64,000 nucleotides of DNA from IMG/VR virus record IMGVR_UViG_2974694417_000001, positions 60,580 through 124,579 of that record, one strand, 5' to 3'. This stretch comes from a virus. Below, piece by piece: positions 3,192 to 61,648 of this stretch; the first letter of the stretch is position 1; each line of letters begins with the position of its first letter. The notes beneath the pieces were generated by a model, which saw only the letters and a program-made list of their open reading frames with translations, was not told the DNA's origin and searched no databases. A program made the translations under genes and the position numbers.

Positions 3192-6019
3192 ATGGAAAAT
3201 TTATTTGTTGTTAAGAAAAGAACAGATGAGAAACAAGAAAGGGTGACGGAAGAATGGAACTTCGATAAGGTAATTTCTGCCTGTCAAAAGTCAGCCCAAC
3301 ACATAGATAAATCTCTAACTAAAGAACAAATTGAGAGTTTAGAATATTTAGTTGACAAATCTATTAACAAGCGTAGAACTAAAATATTAAATAATAGAGG
3401 TGTCCCATTCAGAGAAATTTTAAATAATATCCCTGTGGAAGAAGTCCACGAAATGGTGCAAGATGCTTTGAGATTGCTTGATGTTGATATATATAAGTCA
3501 TATCATGAATATCGAAATTATAAAATATCACAAGATAAGCATTACCGTGAACTATACAAAGATTTGGATAGTCTTAAGAATGGAATTTATACTGAGAATG
3601 CAAACAAAGATAGCTCTATTAATTCAACCAAGCGTTCTCTTCTTGCTGAAATGACTCAAAAGAAAATTGTGACTGACTTTATTCTTCAAAAGAACTGGGC
3701 TAAGGCTCATGAAGAAGGATGGATTTATATTCATGACTTAGGAGATTTGTACTGGAGAAGTTTCAATTGTGATAACGTTGATTTAGCAAATATCATTAAG
3801 ACTAAAAAGCAAAAAGATGGAGAATATGCTTTTACTTTAAATGGTATTAAATATCCTGAACCTAAATCAATTAGTTCAGCTTTTAACTTAGTGGCAGATT
3901 TGATTTTACAGATGTCTAGCCAACAGCATGGAGGTCTTAGTGTTCAGAACTTTGACCATTGCCTAGCACCTTATGCAAAATTAACTTACGATAAAGCATT
4001 CAAAAGATATATGGAAAAGGGAATTGCATATAATACAGCACGTGAAATGGCAGAAGAAGATACTCTTTATGCAATCAAACAAGGTGTTCAAGGGTTTGAA
4101 CTTGAAATAAGTACTATCTCTAATGCACTAGGACAAATTCCATTTACATCAATTGGTTTTGGATTGGATACCTCTAAATGGGGTCGTGAAATTACTCGTG
4201 CTTTCTTGCTCGAACGTTCTGAACCAGATTGTGTGCTTGTCTTTCCTAAATTAATATTTGCTAGTGCTAAAGAAGTTAACTTGAATCCTGATTCACCTAA
4301 CTATGATTTATTCCAATTGGCTATTAAATGCAGTTCAACTAAATTATATCCTGATTACGTTTCAATGGATAATGGTATTCTTGCACCTGCATATAGTCGT
4401 CATAAAGATGACTTAGACCAAATTTTATCAGTACCAATGGGTTAGTTGGTGAAAATGTAGCCCATTTAAAACCTTGTGAACCTCTCTTAGAGGGTGTGGA
4501 TTAATATAATCTGCTAACAGTTAGGTCTTATTGATGTTTGTAGCAATCTTTAAGATGAGACTGTGCCAAGCCAAAACTCTGTTTTGGAAGGTGCAACGAC
4601 TATCCGTGATGAGTGTAGCGGAGCTTAGAAATAAGATATGTTTTAAAAACATATAGACCATGAGATAAGAACATGGTCGGAGCGCAAGGCAACTTTATGT
4701 TGATGATATAGTCTGTCCCATTGGTGACAATGGATTTTAGAGAAAATCATAACTCTAAACAAAGTACGTGCAGAAGCTACAATAATGTTGAATTTATTAA
4801 TCCTTTAGAGGATTCAGAAGACTTCCAAAAGGAAGTTTATAAAGGACGTGGAAATGTTGGTGTAGTAACAATTAATTTCCCTAAAATTGCTATCGAATCA
4901 GGTGGTGACTGGAATAAATTCTATGAATTACTACATAAATATACAAATATGACGATGGATATCTTAGATTGGAGATATTATTATGCTGGAGAAGCTAGAG
5001 CAGAAAGCAATCCTCTAATGTGGATGGAAGGTGGAGCATGGAGACGACTCAACCATGATGAAAAAATCTCTAAAACAATCTTTAATTTTTCTTCATCTAT
5101 TGGATTGATTGGATTCAACGAAACTTTGAATTATATGTATTTAAATAATGGATATGAAATTAATAACTTACCAGATTATAAAAAAGGTGGTCAACGTCAA
5201 CAAGACCAAATGAAATTAATGGAAGTCCTTAATTCAATTAAAGAATTTAGAAACATCCATGACGCTGTTCGTATTGATGAAGATGGTGTTCAAACTCGTG
5301 TTTGGGATGAAGAAGGAAACTTTGTTCACCCAGACCCAGACAAGAAATACCTTGAAGTTTATGAAAAGTTAGACACCACACACAAAACAACTATTATACC
5401 TCGTATGTATTCTATCTATGGAACACCTGCTGAATCTCTTGTGTATAAAATGATGAAGCAATTACAAAAACAATATGGATTCATTAATGGTGTTACGGCT
5501 CAAGAAGATGGAAAAGGACGTAATTATATTACTAACTCATTCCACCAACCAGTGTGGGTAGAATCAAATGTGTTTGATAAGATTGATTTTGAAGCACCTT
5601 TTCATTTAGATAAAATGGCAAGTGGTGGACATATTAGTCAAAATGAATTTGCATTCGGAACAGCGGTGACAATTCTTGAACAAACTGTTAAATATGCAAT
5701 GGAGAAAGGGATGTATTACGGCATCAATATTGCATCTAGTCATTGCTTCGATTGTGGTTGGAGTGGAGAGACAGCAGATACTTGTGTTGAATGCAACTCA
5801 GAGAATGTCGTAACGATAAATAGAGTTTGCGGATATATGTCTATTACATCACGCAATGGACACAGTGTTGTCAATGCTGGTAAGACAGAGGAATTACTTG
5901 AACGTGTTAATCACTTTGGAAATGCTAAGAAAGAATATACTAAAAACTTTGAGAAAAAACATGACATACAAAGGGATGTTGTATCGAAAGAGTTCTCAAT
6001 GTTTGAATCAGGAGAATAA
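3192..6019 (+). CDS. nrdD: Anaerobic (class III) ribonucleotide reductase; exons 3192-4442 + 4769-6019, 833 aa spliced
   Basis: N-terminal ATP-cone-like region. Splicing restores PMG|CRS (thiyl-radical Cys). YGTPAESL, CxxC...CxxC and RVCGY glycyl-radical loop are present. Confidence 0.93.
4443..4768 (+). mobile_element. Group I intron in nrdD (326 nt, no ORF)
   Basis: Exon ends in U with P1 AUGGGU|UA...UAGCCCAU. Core GCAACGACUA and GAUAUAGUC (P7) present, terminal G4768, exons join in frame. Confidence 0.92.
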
Positions 6020-6615
6020 TGGCTTATATACATCAAATAAATGCTATGGACTTTGAGAATAGTTTCCAAGAGGGTGGATTTAGGCACGATAAACAATCTA
6101 AACTTCCTGTGGGAGCTGTTGTTTCAGTCTTTGTAAATTATTGTTCATTCCATTGCTTGGGATGTTGGAATAGTGATACGTGGGATAGGAAGGATGACCT
6201 TTACATTCCAGATGAGGAAGTTGCAGAACAAATCATTGAAGGACTAGACCAGTTTGAATTAGACCCACCGATAGGGTTATCACTACTTGGAGGCGATTGC
6301 ATCCTTCCTGACAATGCCGAGAGTACAGCTAATATAATTAGACTTGTTTTAGAGAAGAGACCTAATGTTGTTATTGGTTTATGGACTGGATACAAGTTTG
6401 AATATCTGTTAAAACATGCTGATGAGAACCAAAAATACATTTTAAAGCATATAGATGTTCTCATTGATGGCAGATTTATTGAAAAGAAAAAGATTGCTAA
6501 TAAACGCTATGGTTCTTACAATCAAAGAGTCATCAACGTCCCTAAATCATTAAAAGAAGGTAAGACAATAACCACAGAATCATATCAACAAGATATGAAA
6601 GATTTTCCAGTATAA
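6019..6615 (+). CDS. nrdG: Anaerobic RNR activase (radical SAM)
   Basis: CSFHCLGC CxxxCxxC motif, SLLGGD, DVLIDGRF, GSYNQR; TAATG-coupled to nrdD. Confidence 0.93.
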   Translation: MAYIHQINAMDFENSFQEGGFRHDKQSKLPVGAVVSVFVNYCSFHCLGCWNSDTWDRKDDLYIPDEEVAEQIIEGLDQFELDPPIGLSLLGGDCILPDNAESTANIIRLVLEKRPNVVIGLWTGYKFEYLLKHADENQKYILKHIDVLIDGRFIEKKKIANKRYGSYNQRVINVPKSLKEGKTITTESYQQDMKDFPV

Positions 6616-7324: not shown

Positions 7325-7564
7325 ATGGTTAAAGTATACAGTAAATATAATTGTAAAAATTGTAAACAAGTCAAACGCTTACTCAAATTCTCAGGAATTG
7401 ATTATGTTGAGGTTAATGTTGAAGACGATGAAGAAGCTTTCAAATATGTTAAAGAAGCACTAGGGTTCTCTAATCTTCCAGTTATCGTAGCTCAGGATGT
7501 AGAACCATTTGAGTTCAACTCTATCAAAGTGAATGAATTTGTTAAGAGTCATACACATGGATAA
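7325..7564 (+). CDS. nrdH: NrdH-redoxin (glutaredoxin-like)
   Basis: VYSKYNCKNC (CxxC), LPVIV; position in the nrdHIE operon; RBS AAGGAG. Confidence 0.9.
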   Translation: MVKVYSKYNCKNCKQVKRLLKFSGIDYVEVNVEDDEEAFKYVKEALGFSNLPVIVAQDVEPFEFNSIKVNEFVKSHTHG

Positions 7565-7928
7565 TATTTTAATTGCTTACAAATCATTAGGTGGAAACTG
7601 TGATAGAGTAATTAAAAAACTGGGTATCGGAGGATTCAAGATTGATGGAGATAATATTTATGACTTCAATGAGGATAGTAAATTTTATCTCTTGATTCCC
7701 ACTTATGAGGAAGAGTGGATTGGAGATGCGTGGGATTTTATGGATGATTATCATGAGAACTGCTTAGGTATCATAGGGTCAGGAAACTTTAACTTTGGGG
7801 ATGATATGTTTATATTCACAGCAAACGATATGAGTAAGAAATATAATATTCCTGTAATCTATTCCATCGAGAACTTTGGAAACAAGAAAGATATCAACAA
7901 CATTAAAGAGTTATTGCAAATAAATTAA
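7557..7928 (+). CDS. nrdI: NrdI flavodoxin
   Basis: AYKSLGGNC, LLIPTY, GIIGSGNFNFG motifs. Confidence 0.9.
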   Translation: MDNILIAYKSLGGNCDRVIKKLGIGGFKIDGDNIYDFNEDSKFYLLIPTYEEEWIGDAWDFMDDYHENCLGIIGSGNFNFGDDMFIFTANDMSKKYNIPVIYSIENFGNKKDINNIKELLQIN

Positions 7929-7941
7929 TAGGAGGTTTCAC

Positions 7942-10900
7942 TTGACAGTCACAAAGATTGAAACAAAAGAATCAGTAACACCAGAGTATTTTATGCTCAA
8001 CAACCAACTAAATATCGTTAAAGACGGTAAAATTCAGTTGAACGCAGACAGAGAAGCTGTCCATAGCTATTTCATTGATTACGTAAACCCTCATACAGTC
8101 TATTTTGGAGACTTACGTGAGAAGCTTGACTATTTAGTGAAACACAAGTATATTAAAGGCGAAGTACTTGATAAATATACTTTCAAATTTATTAAAAAAT
8201 TATTTAAAACTTTGTACAACAAGAAATTTCGATTTACAACTTTCATGGGTGCTTATAAATTTTACACACAGTATGCTATGCGCACCACAGATAACAAGTC
8301 AATTCTTGAACGATATGAAGACCGCATTGCTTTTAATGCCTTAGTTATGGCTGATGGTGACGAACAATTGGCTCTTAACATTGCGCATGAAATGATTTCA
8401 CAAACCTATCAACCTGCAACACCAACATTCTCTAATGCTGGTAAGTTGCGTGGTGGTAATGCTGTATCATGTTTCCTTTTGAATATTGAAGATAATATGA
8501 CGTCTATTGGGCGCTCAGTAAATTCAGTTCTTCAATTGTCTAAAATGGGTGGTGGAGTTGGAATCAACTTAACTGATATCCGTCCGTCAGGAGACCCTAT
8601 CAAGGGTATTGAGAATATGGCTGATGGAGTTGTTCCAATCATGAAACTCTATGAAGATTCATTTTCATATGCCAATCAGTTGGGGACAAGAAATGGGGCA
8701 GGAGTAACTTATCTCAATGTATTCCATAAAGATATTGTTAAATTCCTCTCTACAAAAAAAGAAAATGCTGACGAAAAAGTTCGTGTTAAAACTCTTTCTC
8801 TCGGTGTTGTAGTTCCTGATAAATTCTATGAACTCATTGCTAAAGGTGAATCAATGTATTTGTTTAGCCCTTATGATATCTACAATGAGTATGGAAAACT
8901 AATGTCTGAAATCAACATCACAGAAATGTATGATGAATTAGTTGAAAACAAAAATATCAAGAAAGATAAAATCTTTGCTCGTGACCTTGAAGAAGAAATG
9001 TCTAAACTTATTCAAGAATCAGGATATCCATACATCATCAACATTGATACAGCAAACCAAGAAAATGCTGTTGACGGTGTAATTAAAATGTCTAACCTTT
9101 GCTCTGAAATCCTTCAAGTACAATCTCCATCAGAATTGAACTCAGACCAAACTTATAAGACTATTGGAACTGACGTATCATGTAACCTTGGTTCAACTAA
9201 TATTACACATCTTATGGAGTCATCTGACTTCGGAAGCTCTGTTAGAACAGCATTTCGTGCATTAGCCTATGTTGCAGATAGCTCTAACATTGAAGAAGTT
9301 CCTACTGTTAAGAACGCCAACGATAAGTATCACTCAGTAGGGTTGAAAATCGCCTAGCTCTACTATAAAATTTTGCTATATGCTGGAAACTCTTAAAGAT
9401 ATTGATACTTGAATCTTACCAATTCGCAAAAGTAAAAATTCAATATATAGATAGACAATCAGCAGGGAAGTCGTGGTTGACCCCTCAGAGACTACACGCA
9501 GAACAACTTAACCAAAAAAAAAAAAAAATACCCACTTAACTACTATTATAGAAAGGAGAACACATGGAAGAATTATGGTCTAATATTGATGGTTTTAATA
9601 GCAAATACCTTATAAGTTCTTTAGGTAGAATTAAAATTAAGGATAATACATCTAAAAGAATTAATAACGGTGTTTTGTGTAATTATCATCAAAAGGAAAT
9701 GATAAAATCTATAAAAATAAACGATAATAAAAATGAATATGTGAGAGTTTCTCTAGTTCATAATGGTGATAATAAAACAAAAACAGTTTATATACACAGA
9801 TTGGTTGCAAAGGCATTTATTCCTAATCCTAAAAACCTACCAGAAGTAAACCACATAAATGATAAGAAGAGTGACAATAGAGTTGAGAATCTTGAATGGT
9901 GCGATAAAAGCTATAACATGAAACATGCAATAGAATATCTTAGTTTCAAAGCTGACACCTCCAATTTACATGACAAAAGACCTGTTTATCAAATAGATAA
10001 AGACACTGATGAGATAATTAAATCTTTTGATAGTATCACTCAAGCTACCAGAGAAACAGGGGTTTTGCACATCTCTGGTGTTTGTTTGGATAACAGACGT
10101 ACAGCTGGTGGATTTAAATGGAAATATAAAGAATAACAACTAATGGTTAAGTTGAAGATATAGTCCAAACCCTAGACAAATATCTCGAAAGAGAGGGTAT
10201 TTTCATTGTAGGCGCAATGGGGCTACATGGATTCCTTGCTAAAAACGGAATCCTCTATGGTTCTCCTGAATCAATTGAGTTCACAGGTATGTACTTCCAA
10301 CTCCTAAACTATTGGACTTTGTTTGAAAGCAATCAAATTGCTATTGAACGCAATCAAGCCTTCTATAACTTTGATAAGTCAGAATATGCAAATGGTAAAT
10401 ACTTCAAACGCTATCTACCACGTGTTAAATTCAAAAACAATCTTTCTGATACAGTTAAAGATTTGTTTAAAGACATTGATATTCCAACTGTACAAGACTG
10501 GGCTGACTTACAATCTTCAATCGAAGAACATGGTTTATATAACTCTTATCGTTTGGCAGTTGCTCCTTAACAACCTAGGGCGCTTAAAAATTAATTTAAG
10601 TGTAAACCTCTTTGAACTGCTGGGAAACCTTACTGCGTAATGGCAAAGGCAATCAGCAACGAAGCTTTAGTAATTTAATTAAATTATTAAAGAACGCTCA
10701 ACGACTATTCCGTAGCTGGAAGTAGGTATCGAGTGATACCGAAGTGGAGAGGGTCTTACAATTGTAAGGCAAGATATAGTCTGCTCTATATAGAAATATA
10801 TAGCAGTTAAAGTTTCATAACGACTTTAACGGTGTGAGCCTAACGAACTCATGCGAACAAAAGGACAGGTTCTATTAGTTATGTTAATGAAGCTACAGCA

Positions 10901-13543: not shown

Positions 13544-13900
13544 ATGGAATTAGAAAACGTAACACTCAAACAATTGCAAAAGAAAGAAGTTGTTCCTTTA
13601 CGTGAACAAGCTTTGGAATATTTTAGAAACTTAGAAAAATCCAAAAGGAAATTACGTCAAGACGGACAAACTTACTATGGTGTTCTAACAACACCTGAAT
13701 ACTTTACCGCAGAAGTTGCTATAGTATTTTCTAATGATGAAGAAGTTGGTTTAGCACGTAAACAAATCTATTCACAATTAATGTACTTTGCAGATAATGA
13801 TATTGTATTCGCTAGTCAATTATTTTATAAATTGACATATGGTAAGATTAATTTTGTTAGTTTTGATAAAGAATTTACTTTAGAAGATGAGGAAAAATAA
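13544..13900 (+). CDS. Hypothetical protein
   Basis: 118 aa ORF with AGGAG RBS. Confidence 0.7.
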   Translation: MELENVTLKQLQKKEVVPLREQALEYFRNLEKSKRKLRQDGQTYYGVLTTPEYFTAEVAIVFSNDEEVGLARKQIYSQLMYFADNDIVFASQLFYKLTYGKINFVSFDKEFTLEDEEK

Positions 13901-13921
13901 TTAAAGATTATATTTGAAAAT

Positions 13922-13957
13922 AATCCTCTTGACAAACAAGGGGATTTGTGTTATAAT
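13922..13957 (+). promoter_or_regulatory. sigmaA promoter of nrdF with -35 embedded in a hairpin
   Basis: TTGACA(13929)-17-TATAAT(13952); AATCCTCTTG/CAAGGGGATT stem. Confidence 0.85.
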
Positions 13958-13979
13958 ATAATAATGAAGGAGGACTATA

Positions 13980-16400
13980 ATGTCAAAAGTAAAATTAGTA
14001 AAAGCTGTGAATTGGAATCGGCTGGAAGATAACATTGACCGTGCAACTTGGGATAAATTGATTTCGCAGTTCTGGGTCAGCTCACGTGTACCCGTTTCAA
14101 ATGACATGGGAGATTGGGGTAAATTGTCTGCCCCAGAGAAAGATTTGTTCAATAAAGTTTTTGGAGGGTTGACACTACTTGATACTTTGCAGGGTGAAGT
14201 CGGTAACAATGAGATTGCAAAAGATTCTCGTACTCAACATGAACTGGCTGTGTTCAGGAACATCTCATTTATGGAAGAGATAGAAAGCATTGTTTCTTTA
14301 GCTTAAAGAAATTTAAGCTTGGTAAAACCTATCTAAACAGGGGAACTCTGACCGTGTAAGACGAAGACAATCCTGTACTAAATTTATTGAAAGGAGACAA
14401 AATTGAAAATAATTGGAAGTAGAACTTATGAAAATATTTTATATAAAAGAATCTTTACTATACATAAAGGTATGCTAGGGCGGTGTTACAATCCTAATGA
14501 TACAAGTTATTCTACGTATGGTGCTAAAGGTGTTACAGTTGATGAACATTGGCACAATCTTGATAATTTTATCGAAGATATTGATAAAATCGATGGGTTT
14601 GATTACAATAAGTTCATTAAAGCTGAGATTCAACTTGATAAAGATTTTAAACAAATTGGTGTTAAAAATAAAGTATATTCATTAAATACATGTGTATTTT
14701 TAAGTCGTTCTGATAATTGTGGGAATAGAAATAACAATCAAGATATGATTATCATTGACCCTGACGGTAATAAATATGAATCACGTAATCGTGAAAAATT
14801 CTGTCGTGAACATAACTTAGACACACGTCATGCACATGCAGTTCTACAAGGTAAAAATCCACACCACAAAGGTTGGCAATTTTTCTATAAAGAAACATTC
14901 AATCCAGCAAATGTTGTACTTAAACAAATCATACTTGGTACAAATTCAGATGGCGATGAATTTTTGTTTAATAATATATCAACATTTGCTAAGGAACAGA
15001 ATCTTTCTGCCCCAAATATTTCAATGGTTTTGTCTGGTAAAAATAAAACTCACAAAGGATGGACTTTTAAAATTATCCAAAAGGGTTTTACTATTCAATA
15101 ATAAATGTGCAACGACTATCGAAAGGATAGCATTTCTCACAGTATAATTCTAGGGGAGATGTGAATAACCAAGTAGAGTAGAGTTTAAGTAAACTCGAAA
15201 TGGTAGGACATATCATTTACTTAAAAGTATGATATGTAAGATATAGTCTGAACTATATAGAAATATATAGAGTGTGAGTAACGAACACACACAACAGCAT
15301 TGACATGCGGAATCTTATTCAACAATCTTCTCAACTTTCTGTACTATGAAAGAGATTGATGGAATATTTGAGTGGACTGCAACAAATCCTTATATTGTTA
15401 AGAAAACAGAAATCGTTCAAGATATCTACGAAAATGGAACTCCTCTACAAAAGAAAATTGCATCAGTATTCTTGGAATCCTTCCTTTTCTACTCAGGATT
15501 CTTTACACCCTTGTATTATGCTGGACTCGGAAAGATGAAAAATACAGCCGAGATTATAAAATTAATTTTGAGGGATGAGTCGGTTTTGTAAGTGAGCTGA
15601 CTTAGGTATTTTGCCTTAGCGAAACCACAATCCTAAACAGGGAAACTCTCTCGCAGACAATCCTGTGTTAAATTATTGTAAAAACCTTTTGATAAACTCT
15701 TTATCTTTTTTAAGATGATGAAGATTGGGAGTTTATCAAAAAGGAAGAAGTACAATATAAAGACTCAACGACTATCGAAAGGCAGTTAATAGCTCTAGGG
15801 GCTATTAATGAAACCAAGTAGAGTACAGCCAAGTGGTAAGCAATGTATGTGAAAATGGCATGCAGATAAGTCTTTTAAATGGAAATGGAGTATGTGGGGT
15901 GTTGACTAACAACAACACTAAGATATAGTCTCAGCGTCCATAGTGATATGGAGAAGTTCATCAGAGAACTGCATAGAATTTACGACTCTATGTGAAGGTA
16001 CTATCACGGATATTACATTGGCTACAAGTTTCAAATTGGATATAATGAATTAACAGAAGCTGAACAAGAAGAGTTAGAAGAATGGACATTTGATTTACTT
16101 GATAAGCTATATCAAAATGAATTGAAATATACTGAACTTCTTTATGATACTGTGGGTTATACAGAGGATGTGAAACAATTCCTTAAATATAACGCAGATA
16201 AAGCTCTTATGAATCTTGGATTCGACACTTTATTTGAAGTTGGTCGTGAAGATATCAATCCACTTGTAATGAATGGTATCTCAACTGAAACAGCTAACCA
16301 TGATTTCTTCTCAGCGGTAGGTAATGGATATCTCCTTGGAGAAGTCGAAGCTATGAAAGACGATGACTACGCTTTGATTAAAGAAAAACTCAATAAATAA
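13980..16400 (+). CDS. nrdF: Class Ib ribonucleotide reductase beta subunit; exons 13980-14281 + 15303-15584 + 16004-16400, 326 aa spliced
   Basis: NWN..ED, QFW, GLTLLDTLQ. Splicing restores MEEI|HAESYS and RDESV|HGYYIG. ESFLFYSGF, KYNADKALMNLG, NHDFFS. Confidence 0.93.
14282..15302 (+). mobile_element. Group I intron 1 of nrdF (1021 nt) with HNH endonuclease in the P6 region
   Basis: P1 GAAGAGAU|...GUUUCUUU with U.G pair; GCAACGACUA and AAGAUAUAGUC core; terminal G15302. Confidence 0.93.
14403..15101 (+). CDS. Intron-encoded HNH-type homing endonuclease with two C-terminal NUMOD1/IENR1-like repeats
   Basis: GMLGRCYNPN..SYSTYGAKGVTV..W...F...LDKD...YSLNTCVF...DN; repeats FCREHNL...VLQGK..HHKGWQF and FAKEQNL...VLSGK..THKGWTF; TTG start with AAGGAG. 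Confidence 0.85.
   Translation: MKIIGSRTYENILYKRIFTIHKGMLGRCYNPNDTSYSTYGAKGVTVDEHWHNLDNFIEDIDKIDGFDYNKFIKAEIQLDKDFKQIGVKNKVYSLNTCVFLSRSDNCGNRNNNQDMIIIDPDGNKYESRNREKFCREHNLDTRHAHAVLQGKNPHHKGWQFFYKETFNPANVVLKQIILGTNSDGDEFLFNNISTFAKEQNLSAPNISMVLSGKNKTHKGWTFKIIQKGFTIQ
15585..16003 (+). mobile_element. Group I intron 2 of nrdF (419 nt, no ORF), apparent terminal A instead of G
   Basis: P1 GAGUCGGU|UU pairs with GAGCUGACUU (U.G at the splice site). P10 GUGA pairs with 3' exon UCAC. CUCAACGACUA and AAGAUAUAGUC core. Only this junction restores DESVHG. Confidence 0.85.
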
Positions 16401-16406
16401 AAATTC

Positions 16407-16442
16407 AGAGGACTTGACAAGTCCTCTTTTTTATGGTATAAT
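16407..16442 (+). promoter_or_regulatory. Terminator after nrdF fused with a sigmaA promoter
   Basis: Perfect inverted repeat AGAGGACTTG-A-CAAGTCCTCT centred on TTGACA(16414), followed by a T run; TATAAT at 16437. Confidence 0.88.
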
Positions 16443-16477
16443 ATTACTATCAAACATTTAAGGAGAATAAACATAAT

Positions 16478-17047
16478 ATGGGTTTACCAAACAATCAAAA
16501 CTATACCCCTACAGTACACTATTTAGAAAGGATGTCAGAACGATTTAATATTAAAACAAACTTAGAGTCTATGAACTTTTTCAAACAACAAGTTGATACT
16601 TTAGAATATGTCGGAAAAAATACAACTAAACTTGGTGTATGTGAAGTTTGGGCAAATGATAAGGCAACTTTCATTCTTGATGTGAAAAACAAGAGGATTG
16701 TGACAGTTTATCAAACTGGAAGCACTGAAATTCAGGCTGATGATACCCCTGTAGAAAAATCCGAACAATCTTTCGAAAATCCACTATCATTGTTCGGAAA
16801 TGAACAGATTAATAACATAATCTTTGATGAATTGTTCGGAAATGTCGAACAAACTTTTGAAAAAATCTCAAATTTCACAAGTAAAATCACGATTTTACAT
16901 GAGAAGATGCAAAAGACAAGTCGTAAAGATTATAAGGCTAAGCAAATGGATGAAGCTCATGAAATCATGTATGAACTTGCACGTCAAATTAAAGTATGTA
17001 ACCAAAAAGAAAACGAAATTAACAAATTTAAAGAAAGACTAGGGTGA
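16478..17047 (+). CDS. Hypothetical protein; N-terminus possibly DUF4258/RelE-like fold, C-terminal coiled coil
   Basis: TVHYLERMSERF...FILDVKNKRIVTVY; AAGGAG RBS. Confidence 0.6.
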   Translation: MGLPNNQNYTPTVHYLERMSERFNIKTNLESMNFFKQQVDTLEYVGKNTTKLGVCEVWANDKATFILDVKNKRIVTVYQTGSTEIQADDTPVEKSEQSFENPLSLFGNEQINNIIFDELFGNVEQTFEKISNFTSKITILHEKMQKTSRKDYKAKQMDEAHEIMYELARQIKVCNQKENEINKFKERLG

Positions 17048-36935: not shown

Positions 36936-39900
36936 TTATCTCCGTGATTTCAACCTATCCATAACTTCGTCTGCAAATCTAACAGCACCTTCTTTGTCAC
37001 CACGATAATTTTCAAAGTTGAATTGCATATCGCCTACAACTAAGCTATTACCAGACTTAGAGGCTTGTATTGATTTTATAAAGTCATTGAGTTGATTTTT
37101 AGTCTTGTCTACAATTGATACTGTTTTTAAAATATCGCTTGTTTGATTTTTATTTAAGACCATTTCTTTCTTGTGGAGCATGGCAACTTTTCCTTGATTG
37201 CCGAACCAATCACCTGTATCACGTATATTCAACTCAATTCGCTAGACTGAGCCAGTTCTCTTATGAACTTCTCTATATCTCTATAGAGGTTAGACTATAT
37301 CTTGTAGTGTATCTACCTCTCCGTTTCCACTGCGCTTGCAATGTACACTCTTGCGAGTTAGTCGTTGAAGCTTAAACCAATAATTTTATGAAATAATAAT
37401 TGATTCTAAATTAGAATCTCTGAAATTATTCTCAGATAACCAGTCTGAAATAATTTTTGTATCAAATTTTAAATCTTTTGTGTTCACAATTCTTAACACT
37501 TTATATCCATTCTCTATAAGTTTAAAATTTCTTTTGTTTTCTTTTCTATCAAACTCATCTTGAGAAATTTTCCCCATCTTTACTGATAGATTGTGTCCAC
37601 CACCATCATATTCTATACAGATGTCATTGCCAATCAATATGTCTATATAGCCAACATCTAATATTGGAAAATTTATTTTTCCACCTAATTGATTTGCTAT
37701 TGCAATCTGCATTTTACTGGCTGGAACACCGTTGTAAAATCCTATATCACCGTTTGGCTTATATCCTTGATTGTTTTTAACTCTGTTTTTCATTGACAGT
37801 CTTCTTATTTCTCTATTTTGCTGAGGATATTCAACACCATATTTATTGAGATTTGTCTTTTTAATCTTATCTTTTATTTCATCTGATTGGAAAACATTTT
37901 CTACTCCATATTTATTTTTTATAGATTCGGTGGCTTTATCTTGAAATTCTTTTAATTCAAAAACATTCTTAACACCATATCTCTCTAAATTTGTTTGAGC
38001 TATTTTAGTTTTACCTTCATTTGATGAAAGATAGCTTTCATAACCTTTAAGTTCTAAATTGGACTCTACAACCTTTAATGTGATACATTCTTTACAACAA
38101 TCTTTCCCAATCTTTTTTCTTCTCTTGTTGTATACATCATATTTATTGTTTAATTCTGTTCCACAATAGTCACAGGTATACTGAACTACAAAATCACTTC
38201 CTTTAGATAAATCTTCAATTTTTACGATAAACTTATCTTTATATTTGGTGAATTGATAGCCTAAAGATTCATATCTTTTTCTTGTCTTTGCGTGCCAAGC
38301 TATCTCAATTTCTTCCGTAATCAACATGATTATTCTCCTTTCTTAGTAGTTTATATTTGGTTTATTTCATTATTGGTTTCTTGCCTGCTGATTGTCCAAT
38401 CCTCTCAATTTTTGAGCATTCGCACTTATCATTGCTGATTATGCTGTAGCTTGAAAGGCTCTAAGGAGTTTCCAGCAATTAGAAGAGTTTTTCTGGTGAA
38501 CTAACATTAATCCACCTGTGTCAAAGGGAATCAACAACTTTCTACCAATTGGCACTGTGTAAGGATTCAAATTACCATTAGCCCTTTGAATCTTAGTCCA
38601 TTGGTAATAATTTCCATAATACTTCTTAGCTAAATCCCAAAGTGTATCTCCATTAACAACTGTGTGTGTTGCTTTTACTCCTGTTTGTCTTGCAGGTCTT
38701 GGTGCAGGTTTTGGTTCAGGTGGAAGATAAGGATTCACATCTCTATGTGCTATAAACGAACTTGTTGCACCAGTAGTATAGTTAGGGTTGTTGACGTTGT
38801 TTCCTTTTTGTTGACTTGCATTCAAGTCGTCTAAATTTTTATTTATACTATTGAGTTCTGTTAATTGGTCTTTTATGCCCAACCAGATATTTGATACATC
38901 AGTTAGATTGTCTCCTACAATTGATTTAATATCATCAGGACTCAAGTTTTCTGTCCCCATGATTCCTTTTCCATTGCCACTCATCAATTCAGATAGTTCA
39001 TCTTGCATATCATTCATCATTTGAGTTAAGACATTTGTATCACCTGCATTCCATTTGTCTACTGCATTTTTCCATGATGCATCATCATTGATTAACTTAT
39101 CATAATAATCTTGAATTTGTTTAGATTTATCGTTGATTTCACTGACATTATTATCATAATTTGTGTTTTCATTATCTTTATTTCTATTTACTTGGTCAAG
39201 CTGTTCTTGTTTTTGTTTATCAAGTTGTTCTTTCCAGAGTGTATCTTGTCTCTCTAACTGAGCATCTGTGATATCTTTATTCAGGTCTGTCAGTTGTTTT
39301 TGGAGGTCTGCTAAAGCCTTTTTACCCTCTAACGAATTATCTCTTGAGGCTAATGATATTTTTTGCATAAAGTCTGCACGTTTAGCATTAAAGTCTTCCA
39401 TCTTCTTAGCATATGTTTCTTCGGCTTTTTCTGAATCACGTTCTTTAACTTTTACATCGTAGACTTCATTTATTTTTGAAATCTCATCATCATATGATTT
39501 TATTTTTGCGTCATGTGTAGTTTTTAAGTTTTCAAGTTCTTTTTCAGTAGATTGCTTGCTTAATGTTTGCATTTGTTTATAATAGTTTTTGAGTGAAGAT
39601 ACTTCGTCTTGTGCAACTTTTTCACGAGCATCGGCAACAGCTTTTTGTTCTTTCAAGGTGTCAAGAACAGCACTATTATAATTCTTTTGAGCTTCTTCGA
39701 GCATCTTTTGCATTTCAATAGCTTGTTTAGATGAAGCACCATATTTCTTGCTTGCACTATTATATTCAGCTTGATATTTGGCAACTTGATTCTTGTACGT
39801 AAGTTCAAGTTTTTGTTGTTGTTCTATCATATCATATTGAATCTTAAGCTGTTGACCTACATCATTAGGGTTAGTGTATTGAAGTTTCTCATTCTTGAAG

Positions 39901-59950: not shown

Positions 59951-61648
59951 TTATTTGAATCTTTTATAAACAGGTGCTTTAATTTTCATGAAGCCATATG
60001 CATCATCATCTGGTTTCTTTCTCTTTCTTTTGCTTTCTGATTCTTCTAAATAAATCCAATAGAGACCATAAGCAAAAGCAGAGTACCTATCTTTTTGTAT
60101 TTTTTGAGATACCTGTTTAACAGTACCTGTATTACCATTATTTACATATTCGAGGTTCATGATTTCATCAACTAATCGGTCTGTCTGAATAAATGGTAAT
60201 AATTTATCAGCTTCTTTTCGTGGGTCTTTTTCTTTGATACTTGCTTGAATCTTAGACTCGGAAGTTAATATTTTAACATCATTGTTCGCAAATGTAGCCA
60301 TGAAGTGGTTAATGATGTTTGAGTTCTTAGTGCCTTTCTTTTGAGCGGATACTGCGAAAATCATAGGAATACTATTTGGTTTCTTATACTCAGCATAACC
60401 ATCATCATTTACAACACTATAAGGAGGGTTGTCATCGATTTCACTTGTTAAGTAATCGACCAATCCCCAACCCATACCATTAATATCGACACAGAGGATT
60501 GTCGCATTGAACTCGTTTACTTTTTGTTTCAAGAACTTGGCTTGATTCTCAAAGTGACTACCTTGCATTGTGAAAATATTAACTAAATGCTTAGTATAAG
60601 TTCCATCTCCTCTATCCTCAATACGTATTACTGCCAAAGAACTATTGGCTGTGTTGCCAGTTGTTGCTCTAGCTACGTCGTATGATAGAACGAATCTTAC
60701 ATTAGGATTCTTTTTATCTTCACTATTAATTTTCCACATTGGTTTCTCTAAAACACGAGCTTTACTTATTTCGTCTGCTGAGACTAATGATTTTTCACTA
60801 GAACCAGTAAAGACTGACCTAAACTCACGTTCAAATGAAAGTGGGCTATATGTAGGGTCTTCAAGTTTTTCATTAACATCATCTATATCAAGCGTTCCAA
60901 AATGTGTTCCCATCTCGTAACTCGTCCCAAGAACAATTGTCGGTTTACCCTGCTCCATCTCTTCATATAATGCCCTAAACTTATCATAACAATAAGATTG
61001 CTTATGAGAAGCCGTTGTAACATAAGCTTCTGTTTTAGAGTATTCGTTTTCTTTGTCAACACCATGACCAACAACGTTACGTGCTTGTGCAAGCATTGGA
61101 CGTATAACTTCATTAATTGTTTTTGCGTCCATACGTTCGTCAACTATTTCCTCTAGGGTAATTCCTTGTGCACGTAAACCACGTGAACTTTCACCTACTG
61201 TAAGAGTATCTAGTGTTGAACCGTTTTTGAAGACTAGCTTAACATAATCTTTTTCGAATTTACATTTATTGAAGATTAATTCATTTTTGAGTAATGGATA
61301 ATCTCTCCAAAACTCTTCGAACTTAGACTTAACTACTTTTGCAGATTGTTCTTTAGTTGGCATTGCGACTGCCAAGGCATTATTTGGATATAGAATACAT
61401 TTAACATAATTTGAAAGAAGTTCAATATATGTTTTAGAAATACCACGACTAGCTACAATTCCTACTCTCTTATAACGAAAGAAAGTTCGCATATAAACTC
61501 TTTGGAATGGAAGTAAATCAAACATTGTGGATTCTGTCTTGATATAATCTATGAATCTGTCTGGATACATTCTGAAATATGAAATCATATCTCTAAAACC
61601 ATCTTTAACATCTCCAAAATTATCATTAAATTCTTTAACTGATAACAT
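59951..61648 (-). CDS. Terminase large subunit
   Basis: Walker A-like ASRGISKT, RGLRAQGITLEE (Walker B), VTTA, SYDVAR and KDRYSAFAYG nuclease motifs. Confidence 0.92.
   Translation of the reverse strand: MLSVKEFNDNFGDVKDGFRDMISYFRMYPDRFIDYIKTESTMFDLLPFQRVYMRTFFRYKRVGIVASRGISKTYIELLSNYVKCILYPNNALAVAMPTKEQSAKVVKSKFEEFWRDYPLLKNELIFNKCKFEKDYVKLVFKNGSTLDTLTVGESSRGLRAQGITLEEIVDERMDAKTINEVIRPMLAQARNVVGHGVDKENEYSKTEAYVTTASHKQSYCYDKFRALYEEMEQGKPTIVLGTSYEMGTHFGTLDIDDVNEKLEDPTYSPLSFEREFRSVFTGSSEKSLVSADEISKARVLEKPMWKINSEDKKNPNVRFVLSYDVARATTGNTANSSLAVIRIEDRGDGTYTKHLVNIFTMQGSHFENQAKFLKQKVNEFNATILCVDINGMGWGLVDYLTSEIDDNPPYSVVNDDGYAEYKKPNSIPMIFAVSAQKKGTKNSNIINHFMATFANNDVKILTSESKIQASIKEKDPRKEADKLLPFIQTDRLVDEIMNLEYVNNGNTGTVKQVSQKIQKDRYSAFAYGLYWIYLEESESKRKRKKPDDDAYGFMKIKAPVYKRFK

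Follow-up and report, generated by a model that had tools for sequence, protein, structure and literature searches.

We describe a group I intron that appears to lack the guanosine with which nearly all introns of this class end. It lies in nrdF, the gene for the beta subunit of a class Ib ribonucleotide reductase (RNR), on a 64,000-nucleotide stretch of IMG/VR virus record IMGVR_UViG_2974694417_000001 (positions 60,580 to 124,579 of that record; the whole stretch is hereafter the window). The source region is that of a Lactococcus phage of the 949 group, genus Audreyjarvisvirus, with 98.6% identity to phages WRP3, AM4 and AM5 and 96% to P1048. The intron, nrdF intron 2, occupies 15585-16003 of the plus strand (419 nucleotides) and contains no open reading frame (ORF). 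Judged from its sequence, it is a phage IA-type group I intron with P7.1 and P7.2, and selection on the flanking exons suggests that it is spliced. Its last base is predicted to be an adenosine (A16003), less likely a U and never a G. Few features of group I introns are as constant as the terminal guanosine (omega-G), which in the textbook mechanism is essential in exon ligation. We consider it likely that nrdF intron 2 is a functional self-splicing phage IA intron in which the terminal G changed to A in an ancestor of the intron-carrying 949-group phages.

The nrdF junction and the anatomy of intron 2

Joining 13980-14281, 15303-15584 and 16004-16400 yields a protein of 326 residues that translates without a stop. 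It has the features of a class Ib beta subunit, namely the Ribonuc_red_sm domain (Pfam PF00268, of which the three exons cover positions 2-92, 95-194 and 195-280) and both ExxH metal-ligand motifs (EEIHAESY and RDESVHG). Intron 2 interrupts the second of these iron-ligand motifs. Exon 2 (15303-15584, plus strand) ends AGG GAU GAG UCG GU (R D E S V-) and stops at profile position 194; exon 3 (16004-16400, plus strand, stop codon included) begins U CAC GGA (-V H G) at position 195, and the profile runs unbroken across the junction. Removal of the intron gives a continuous conserved frame (RDESV/HG), as in the intron-less nrdF allele of phage phiL47 (cgt gat gaa tct gtc cac ggt, RDESVHG). Of 80 NrdF loci retrieved from IMG/VR, all have the motif RDE[S/A]xHG where their sequence is uninterrupted, and the best solved relative of this NrdF, 4n83, reads IIRDESVHGTYIGYK at this place. 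RDESVHG is restored solely by joining ...GAGUCGGU to UCACGG..., or by an mRNA-equivalent register that is weighed below. The join after A16003 translates to LILRDESVHGYYIGYK; the predicted ligated exon 2/exon 3 sequence is ...GAGUCGGUUCACGG..., and the peptide across the predicted junction is DESVHGYYIGYK.

Guanosines do occur near the predicted 3' splice site, and in other introns a mutation of omega can bring cryptic sites into use. The closest are G15997 and G15998. A join after G15997 keeps the frame and would give an NrdF with two inserted tyrosines (ESVYYHG). If the join followed G15998, a frameshift would lead to a stop and the protein would be truncated. Use of either as the true 3' site is very improbable, given that the ExxH spacing is invariant in the 80 loci inspected and in solved NrdF structures, that G15997 is the covarying partner of C15932 and not the omega base, and that the P9.0 and P10 pairings both indicate 16003/16004. 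Cuts after G15579 at the 5' end and after G15998 at the 3' end, which would give DEYYHG, were also considered and rejected; they involve no U.G pair, and homologues all have S or A after the Glu.

The structural elements of the intron all lie on the plus strand. The P1 exon strand GAGUCGGU (15577-15584), which is kept in homologues, is complementary to the internal guide sequence GCUGACUU (15596-15603), the P1 intron strand, and the pair between the splice-site U15584 and G15596 (U.G) terminates the helix at the 5' splice site. The P10 guide GUGA (15592-15595), which immediately precedes the guide G, can form four Watson-Crick pairs with U16004-C16007 (UCAC), the first bases of exon 3. Within the catalytic core, P3 (CCACA/UGUGG), P8, P7.1 and P7.2 are visible in folds, and P7 consists of GACUA (15770-15774) and UAGUC (15926-15930). 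By analogy with established models, the pair between G15770 and C15930 is presumed to be the one that binds guanosine. J7/9 (UCAG, 15931-15934) contributes C15932, paired with G15997, and the two P9.0 pairs A15933-U16002 and G15934-C16001. Local folds and alignment support three hairpins, P9, P9.1 and P9.2 (15937-15952, 15956-15969 and 15971-15993; domain 15937-15993), which are followed by the 3' tail GAAG-GUA-CU (15994-16002) and the omega position (16003). P9.0 and P10 flank the 3' splice site. The base between them is A, or U in the alternative register; in no register is it G.

This alternative register arises from U15585 and U16004 being the same base. If both cuts were shifted downstream by one base, so that the 5' cut followed U15585, in a pair with A15595, and the 3' cut followed U16004, the last intron base would be U and the mRNA and protein would be identical; P1 can indeed be extended by the U15585-A15595 pair. 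However, such cuts would lose the U.G pair that homologues keep at that position and shorten P10 to three base pairs. They would also separate P9.0 from the splice site by one base more than the family pattern has. We therefore regard this register as improbable and retain A16003 as the predicted terminal base.

Parts of the core can be tied to an intron recognized by Rfam. The P7 stretches UCAACGACUA and AAGAUAUAGUCU are identical to those of nrdE intron 2 in the same window, where they are aligned by Rfam model RF00028 (87.9 bits). Over 13900-16500, RF00028 gave no match even at E <= 10, and neither nrdF intron was detected; the model may fail to bridge the long insertions of intron 2 (a P6 extension of approximately 100 nucleotides, and P7.1/P7.2).

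An earlier note on this DNA, made from the letters alone, had fixed the 5' site through the U.G pair, described the P10 pairing and the canonical P7 pair, and found that only the join after A16003 gives DESVHG. Each of these readings is borne out: phages 156 and A9 have the same P1 arrangement, G-ending homologues have the same P7, and both phiL47 and Pfam agree with the translated junctions. The interval that it gave, 15571-16010, does hold a group I intron, but its start takes in 14 exon bases, and the U15585/U16004 ambiguity was absent from it.

Relatives with a terminal guanosine

Homologous introns interrupt the same nrdF codon in Enterococcus phages of the genus Kochikohdavirus (156, LG1, Carl and others) and in Brochothrix phages of the genus Klumppvirus (A9, ADU4 and BtpYZU04), and nrdF intron 2 can be aligned over its full length to those of A9 and 156. 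The introns share the insertion point (GAG UCG GU/N CAY GG, the slash marking the splice site), the guide GCUGAC, the core, with 76-81% identity, and the P9-P9.2 hairpins. The 5' sites of the homologues follow GAGUCGGU, and their 3' ends read ...GUGAAGAUAUUG before ACAUGG in Enterococcus (last bases UUG) and ...UUGAAGAUUACUG before ACAYGG in Brochothrix (CUG), ESVHG being restored in these cases. The corresponding sequence of the window, ...GUGAAGGUACUA before UCACGG (CUA), aligns with them in register, and A16003 falls under their terminal G, which is found in all six homologues examined (156, LG1, Carl, A9, ADU4 and BtpYZU04). The homologues differ from the lactococcal intron in ending with G and in having a weaker P10; in addition, a peripheral loop of the Enterococcus copy contains an ORF, which the lactococcal intron lacks. 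P10 comprises four Watson-Crick pairs in the window, two in phage 156 and approximately one in A9. The stronger P10 is consistent with compensation for the lost G, although compensation itself is not demonstrated. P7 and its flanks, in contrast, are identical in the A-ending and G-ending introns, and the G15770-C15930 pair has therefore not co-varied with the A at omega.

The 3' domain of these introns, from P7' through P9, P9.1, P9.2 and the tail, unites a large family of phage introns. With a 19-base motif of this domain, more than 100 stretches were retrieved from IMG/VR, along with many GenBank phages, and 110 unique introns were analysed. The second base of J7/9 and the base after the tail GAA form a Watson-Crick pair in 105 of them. 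In 99, a G follows directly on one or two bases that pair with the third base of J7/9 or, often, with the third and fourth, and three more introns fit on inspection. The P9.0-type pairs are of many kinds (AA/UU, AG/CU, GG/CC, CU/AG, GU/AC, CC/GG and others), and this wide variation therefore indicates genuine covariation in the tail pairings. These pairs correspond to P9.0 as described for T4 sunY. The intron of the window obeys the scheme exactly, with C15932-G15997, A15933-U16002 and G15934-C16001, yet the next base is A. Its tail also has the layout of the family consensus and of nrdE intron 2, as the earlier note had seen: GCGAAC-AAA-AG-G at 10853-10864 of nrdE intron 2 corresponds base for base to GUGAAG-GUA-CU-A, with A in the omega position. 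Because the G-ending homologues align in register and the tail pairings covary, we assign the omega position to A16003.

Two further observations concern the tail scheme. The introns that remain as misfits are group-I-like elements with J7/9 UGUG in intergenic DNA (five in IMG/VR). They have the tail GAAC-GACAACCUC, stand after a stop codon and before terminator-like hairpins, and their possible P9.0 bases (CA) are followed by A or C, not by G. These elements may end in a G right after GAAC, or they may form a second lineage without omega-G. Elsewhere in the window, a third intron with the P9.1 motif GAAGTTCATAAGAGAACTG is found at approximately 37250-37275 on the minus strand. It has J7/9 UAAC and a tail that conforms to the rule (GAAU-AUAC-G), and it matches the intron in the tape-measure gene that had been noted before.

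Wider searches added no members to the set of same-site introns. The exact tail pattern with N at omega had no match in metagenome contigs from JGI. A degenerate tail-plus-exon pattern found only the known lactococcal phages and intron-less genes in IMG/VR, and only chance matches in genome and metagenome contigs. A profile search of IMG/VR with NrdF exon 3 returned intron-less genes, inteins, one different intron and three known lactococcal genomes. These pattern and profile scans thus revealed neither further same-site introns nor G-bearing lactococcal variants.

Selection on nrdF and the second splicing step

The tail GAAGGTACTA, followed by TCACGG, is identical in the window, in WRP3, AM4, AM5 and P1048, and in IMG/VR copies. 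The five A-carrying phage genomes were sequenced independently, come from different depositing groups and sources, and represent at least three species. This agreement refutes an error of sequencing or assembly, as well as a mutation confined to one isolate, and practically no weight can be given to either.

The nrdF gene contains no stops or frameshifts in any of the five genomes. Between the window and P1048, it shows 41.2 synonymous and 16.8 non-synonymous differences, a ratio of non-synonymous to synonymous change (pN/pS) of 0.105. The value for the window and WRP3 is 0.056, and WRP3 and AM4 are separated by four synonymous differences and no non-synonymous ones. Of the 13 differences in exon 3 between the window and P1048, 12 are at third codon positions. 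This bias counts in favor of splicing because exon 3 is translatable only after in-frame splicing. These differences show strong purifying selection on the exons of the A-carriers (pN/pS 0.06-0.11), which argues against a dead allele.

Such an allele, splicing-dead or nearly so, would be one in which the change from G to A blocks ligation and no NrdF is made. The class III RNR of the phage and the NrdEF of the host would substitute, and the gene would look intact only because the change, or the spread of the changed intron, is recent. One reading in the earlier note was of this kind, a defective allele that NrdD or host NrdF would make tolerable. The phage does encode nrdD and nrdG, and the canonical G pocket is kept without a compensating change. 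Intron divergence among the carriers is 0.2-2.6%, which fits a young or recently spread element. Relative to P1048, 11 of the 419 intron positions differ (2.6%), compared to approximately 20% of synonymous exon sites. This low divergence would fit constraint on the RNA, and it would equally fit recent spread of the intron among these phages. On the other hand, the nearest exon differences lie 28 nucleotides upstream and 16 nucleotides downstream of the intron, so no long tract has been co-converted, and this counts against a large recent conversion. The synonymous divergence, the constraint on the exons, including exon 3, in five genomes that lack any disabling mutation, and the retention of nrdI and nrdE as well all disfavor a defective allele, and we consider it unlikely.

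Several points nevertheless weigh against a functional intron, and they keep our preference for it from being stronger. The main reason for caution comes from omega mutants of other introns. Mutation of the terminal G reportedly leaves the Tetrahymena intron and the sunY intron of T4 strongly impaired in ligation if P7 is not altered as well (Price & Cech 1988; Michel et al. 1989, 1990; Been & Perrotta 1991), and the P7 pair is unchanged here. The intron may have spread recently, in which case part of the exon divergence would predate the A. Among the 11 intron differences from P1048, three disrupt pairs in a peripheral hairpin, and several are interchanges between G.U and Watson-Crick pairs or lie in loops. 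None is a double compensatory change, and we therefore claim no covariation within the lactococcal clade. Loss of NrdF might be tolerable with nrdD/nrdG in the phage and nrdEF in the host. Finally, four public RNA-labelled runs with parts of the locus gave only short contigs, many of which derive from relatives or from different introns that have this 3' domain in common, and none of which joined across the intron. That no spliced RNA was seen in them is compatible with a dead allele, although these contigs say nothing either way. Food-metagenome runs contain 70-80% of the locus.

If nrdF intron 2 is functional, as we prefer to think, the first step of splicing would be ordinary: an exogenous G held in the unchanged P7 pocket (G15770-C15930) would attack after U15584 in the U.G pair of P1. 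In the second step, A16003 would be unable to fill the G pocket properly. The 3' site would then be placed by C15932-G15997, by the P9.0 pairs A15933-U16002 and G15934-C16001 just before it, and by the four-base-pair P10 (GUGA/UCAC) just after it. Ligation of ...GAGUCGGU to UCACGG... would restore the E-S-V-H iron-ligand motif. Compared with the G-ending relatives, the reaction would probably be slower or less complete, and a helper protein may contribute. The two other readings in the earlier note, a non-canonical or protein-assisted splicing variant and a slow-splicing throttle on an RNR subunit, fit the present observations alike. The occurrence and rate of exon ligation are thus what we infer, beyond the observed anatomy, the terminal A and its conservation in five phages, the G of the relatives and the selection on the exons. 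We are evenly divided on the more specific proposal that a phage ribozyme ligates usefully with A at omega and an ordinary G pocket, its second step being specified only by P9.0 and a strengthened P10.

Insertions in the RNR cluster and known introns

The RNR cluster occupies the left part of the window. It contains nrdD in two pieces (3192-4445 and 4721-6019), nrdG (6019-6615), nrdI (7533-7928), nrdE and nrdF with three exons each, and a thioredoxin-reductase-like gene. The two nrdD ORFs match the NRDD profile at positions 1-246 and, in the best stretch of the second, 407-562. They are approximately 275 nucleotides apart, and the gap (4446-4720) is probably another small intron, unreported by Rfam at the gathering score.

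Intron 1 of nrdF (14282-15302) contains an ORF for an HNH endonuclease (14403-15101) and splits the first ExxH motif (EEI/HAESY) at the codon position equivalent to that of intron 2. It ends in G (...GCAUUG before ACAUGCGG). P1048 and phiL47 lack this intron, and their HNH gene is upstream of nrdF. Intron content thus differs within the 949 group: phiL47 has neither nrdF intron, P1048 has intron 2 alone, and the others have both. In phiL47, nrdF apparently starts near position 1906 of the retrieved locus (L001:1906; region ~1906-2265). The phiL47 record annotates only the C-terminal 207 residues because of an extra base in GGACTTACTCCTTCTTGATACA relative to the relatives, which is either a frameshift or a sequencing error.

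The nrdF codons around intron 2 are a hot spot for insertion. A 949-like contig (IMGVR_UViG_3300033072_000448) has a different intron three codons downstream, within HGAY/IGYK, with the tail GAAC-AUAAA-G. An intein that ends ...VITGN before SVHG, between the Glu and Ser of RDESVHG, is present in four large viral contigs. Gene calls at this locus are fragmented as well. In all five GenBank records nrdF is split into separate ORFs and is never given as one joined coding sequence; in those of WRP3, AM4, AM5 and P1048, exon 2 is annotated as a small protein of its own, and the call for exon 3 begins at an internal TTG or ATG.

Introns of the IA2 type are found in several phage genes of nucleotide metabolism, among which we count T4 td, nrdB and nrdD/sunY, Twort nrdE, and SPbeta bnrdE and bnrdF. 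These introns share with nrdF intron 2 the self-splicing P7.1/P7.2 ribozyme architecture, a 3' site set by P9.0 and P10, a position within the most conserved RNR codons, and a stop codon just inside the intron. Unlike nrdF intron 2, all of them are described as ending in G. Papers cited in PMC3888941 are in part the source for the naming of these phage introns. An A at omega also occurs in Tetrahymena introns engineered at omega or switched in G-site specificity (Michel et al. 1989; Been & Perrotta 1991). There, ligation with a terminal A reportedly needed a matching change of the P7 G-C pair, whereas nrdF intron 2 keeps an ordinary G-C.

The sole natural precedent that we found for a group I intron without omega-G is the ND5-717 intron of corallimorph and hexacoral mitochondria. 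It lacks the terminal G and its exons are perfectly ligated in vivo, less efficiently than at a neighbouring intron (PMC6545197). This agrees with the earlier note, in which natural omega-A was called rare, with a coral mitochondrial intron as the example. ND5-717 has been discussed as dependent on host factors (PMC3679873). It is organellar, obligatory, vertically inherited, back-spliced and giant, holding other genes, in contrast to the phage intron, which is small, compact and of the phage self-splicing type. A literature search for omega-A in phage introns, or for work on introns of the 949 group, found no mention of the feature, and the phiL47 genome paper merely notes group I introns among the RNR genes.

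If our proposal is correct, nrdF intron 2 would be the first case in a bacterial virus of group I ligation with an omega adenosine. Either RNA pairings alone would carry the second step in vivo, or a helper would exist. For annotation, it matters that Rfam misses the intron and that nrdF is split in all five GenBank records. The finding should interest specialists in RNA catalysis and in phage introns. The intron would offer a small, tractable natural system for the dispensability of omega-G and for the possibility that a weakened second step limits NrdF production, with its close G-ending relatives at the same codon as natural controls.

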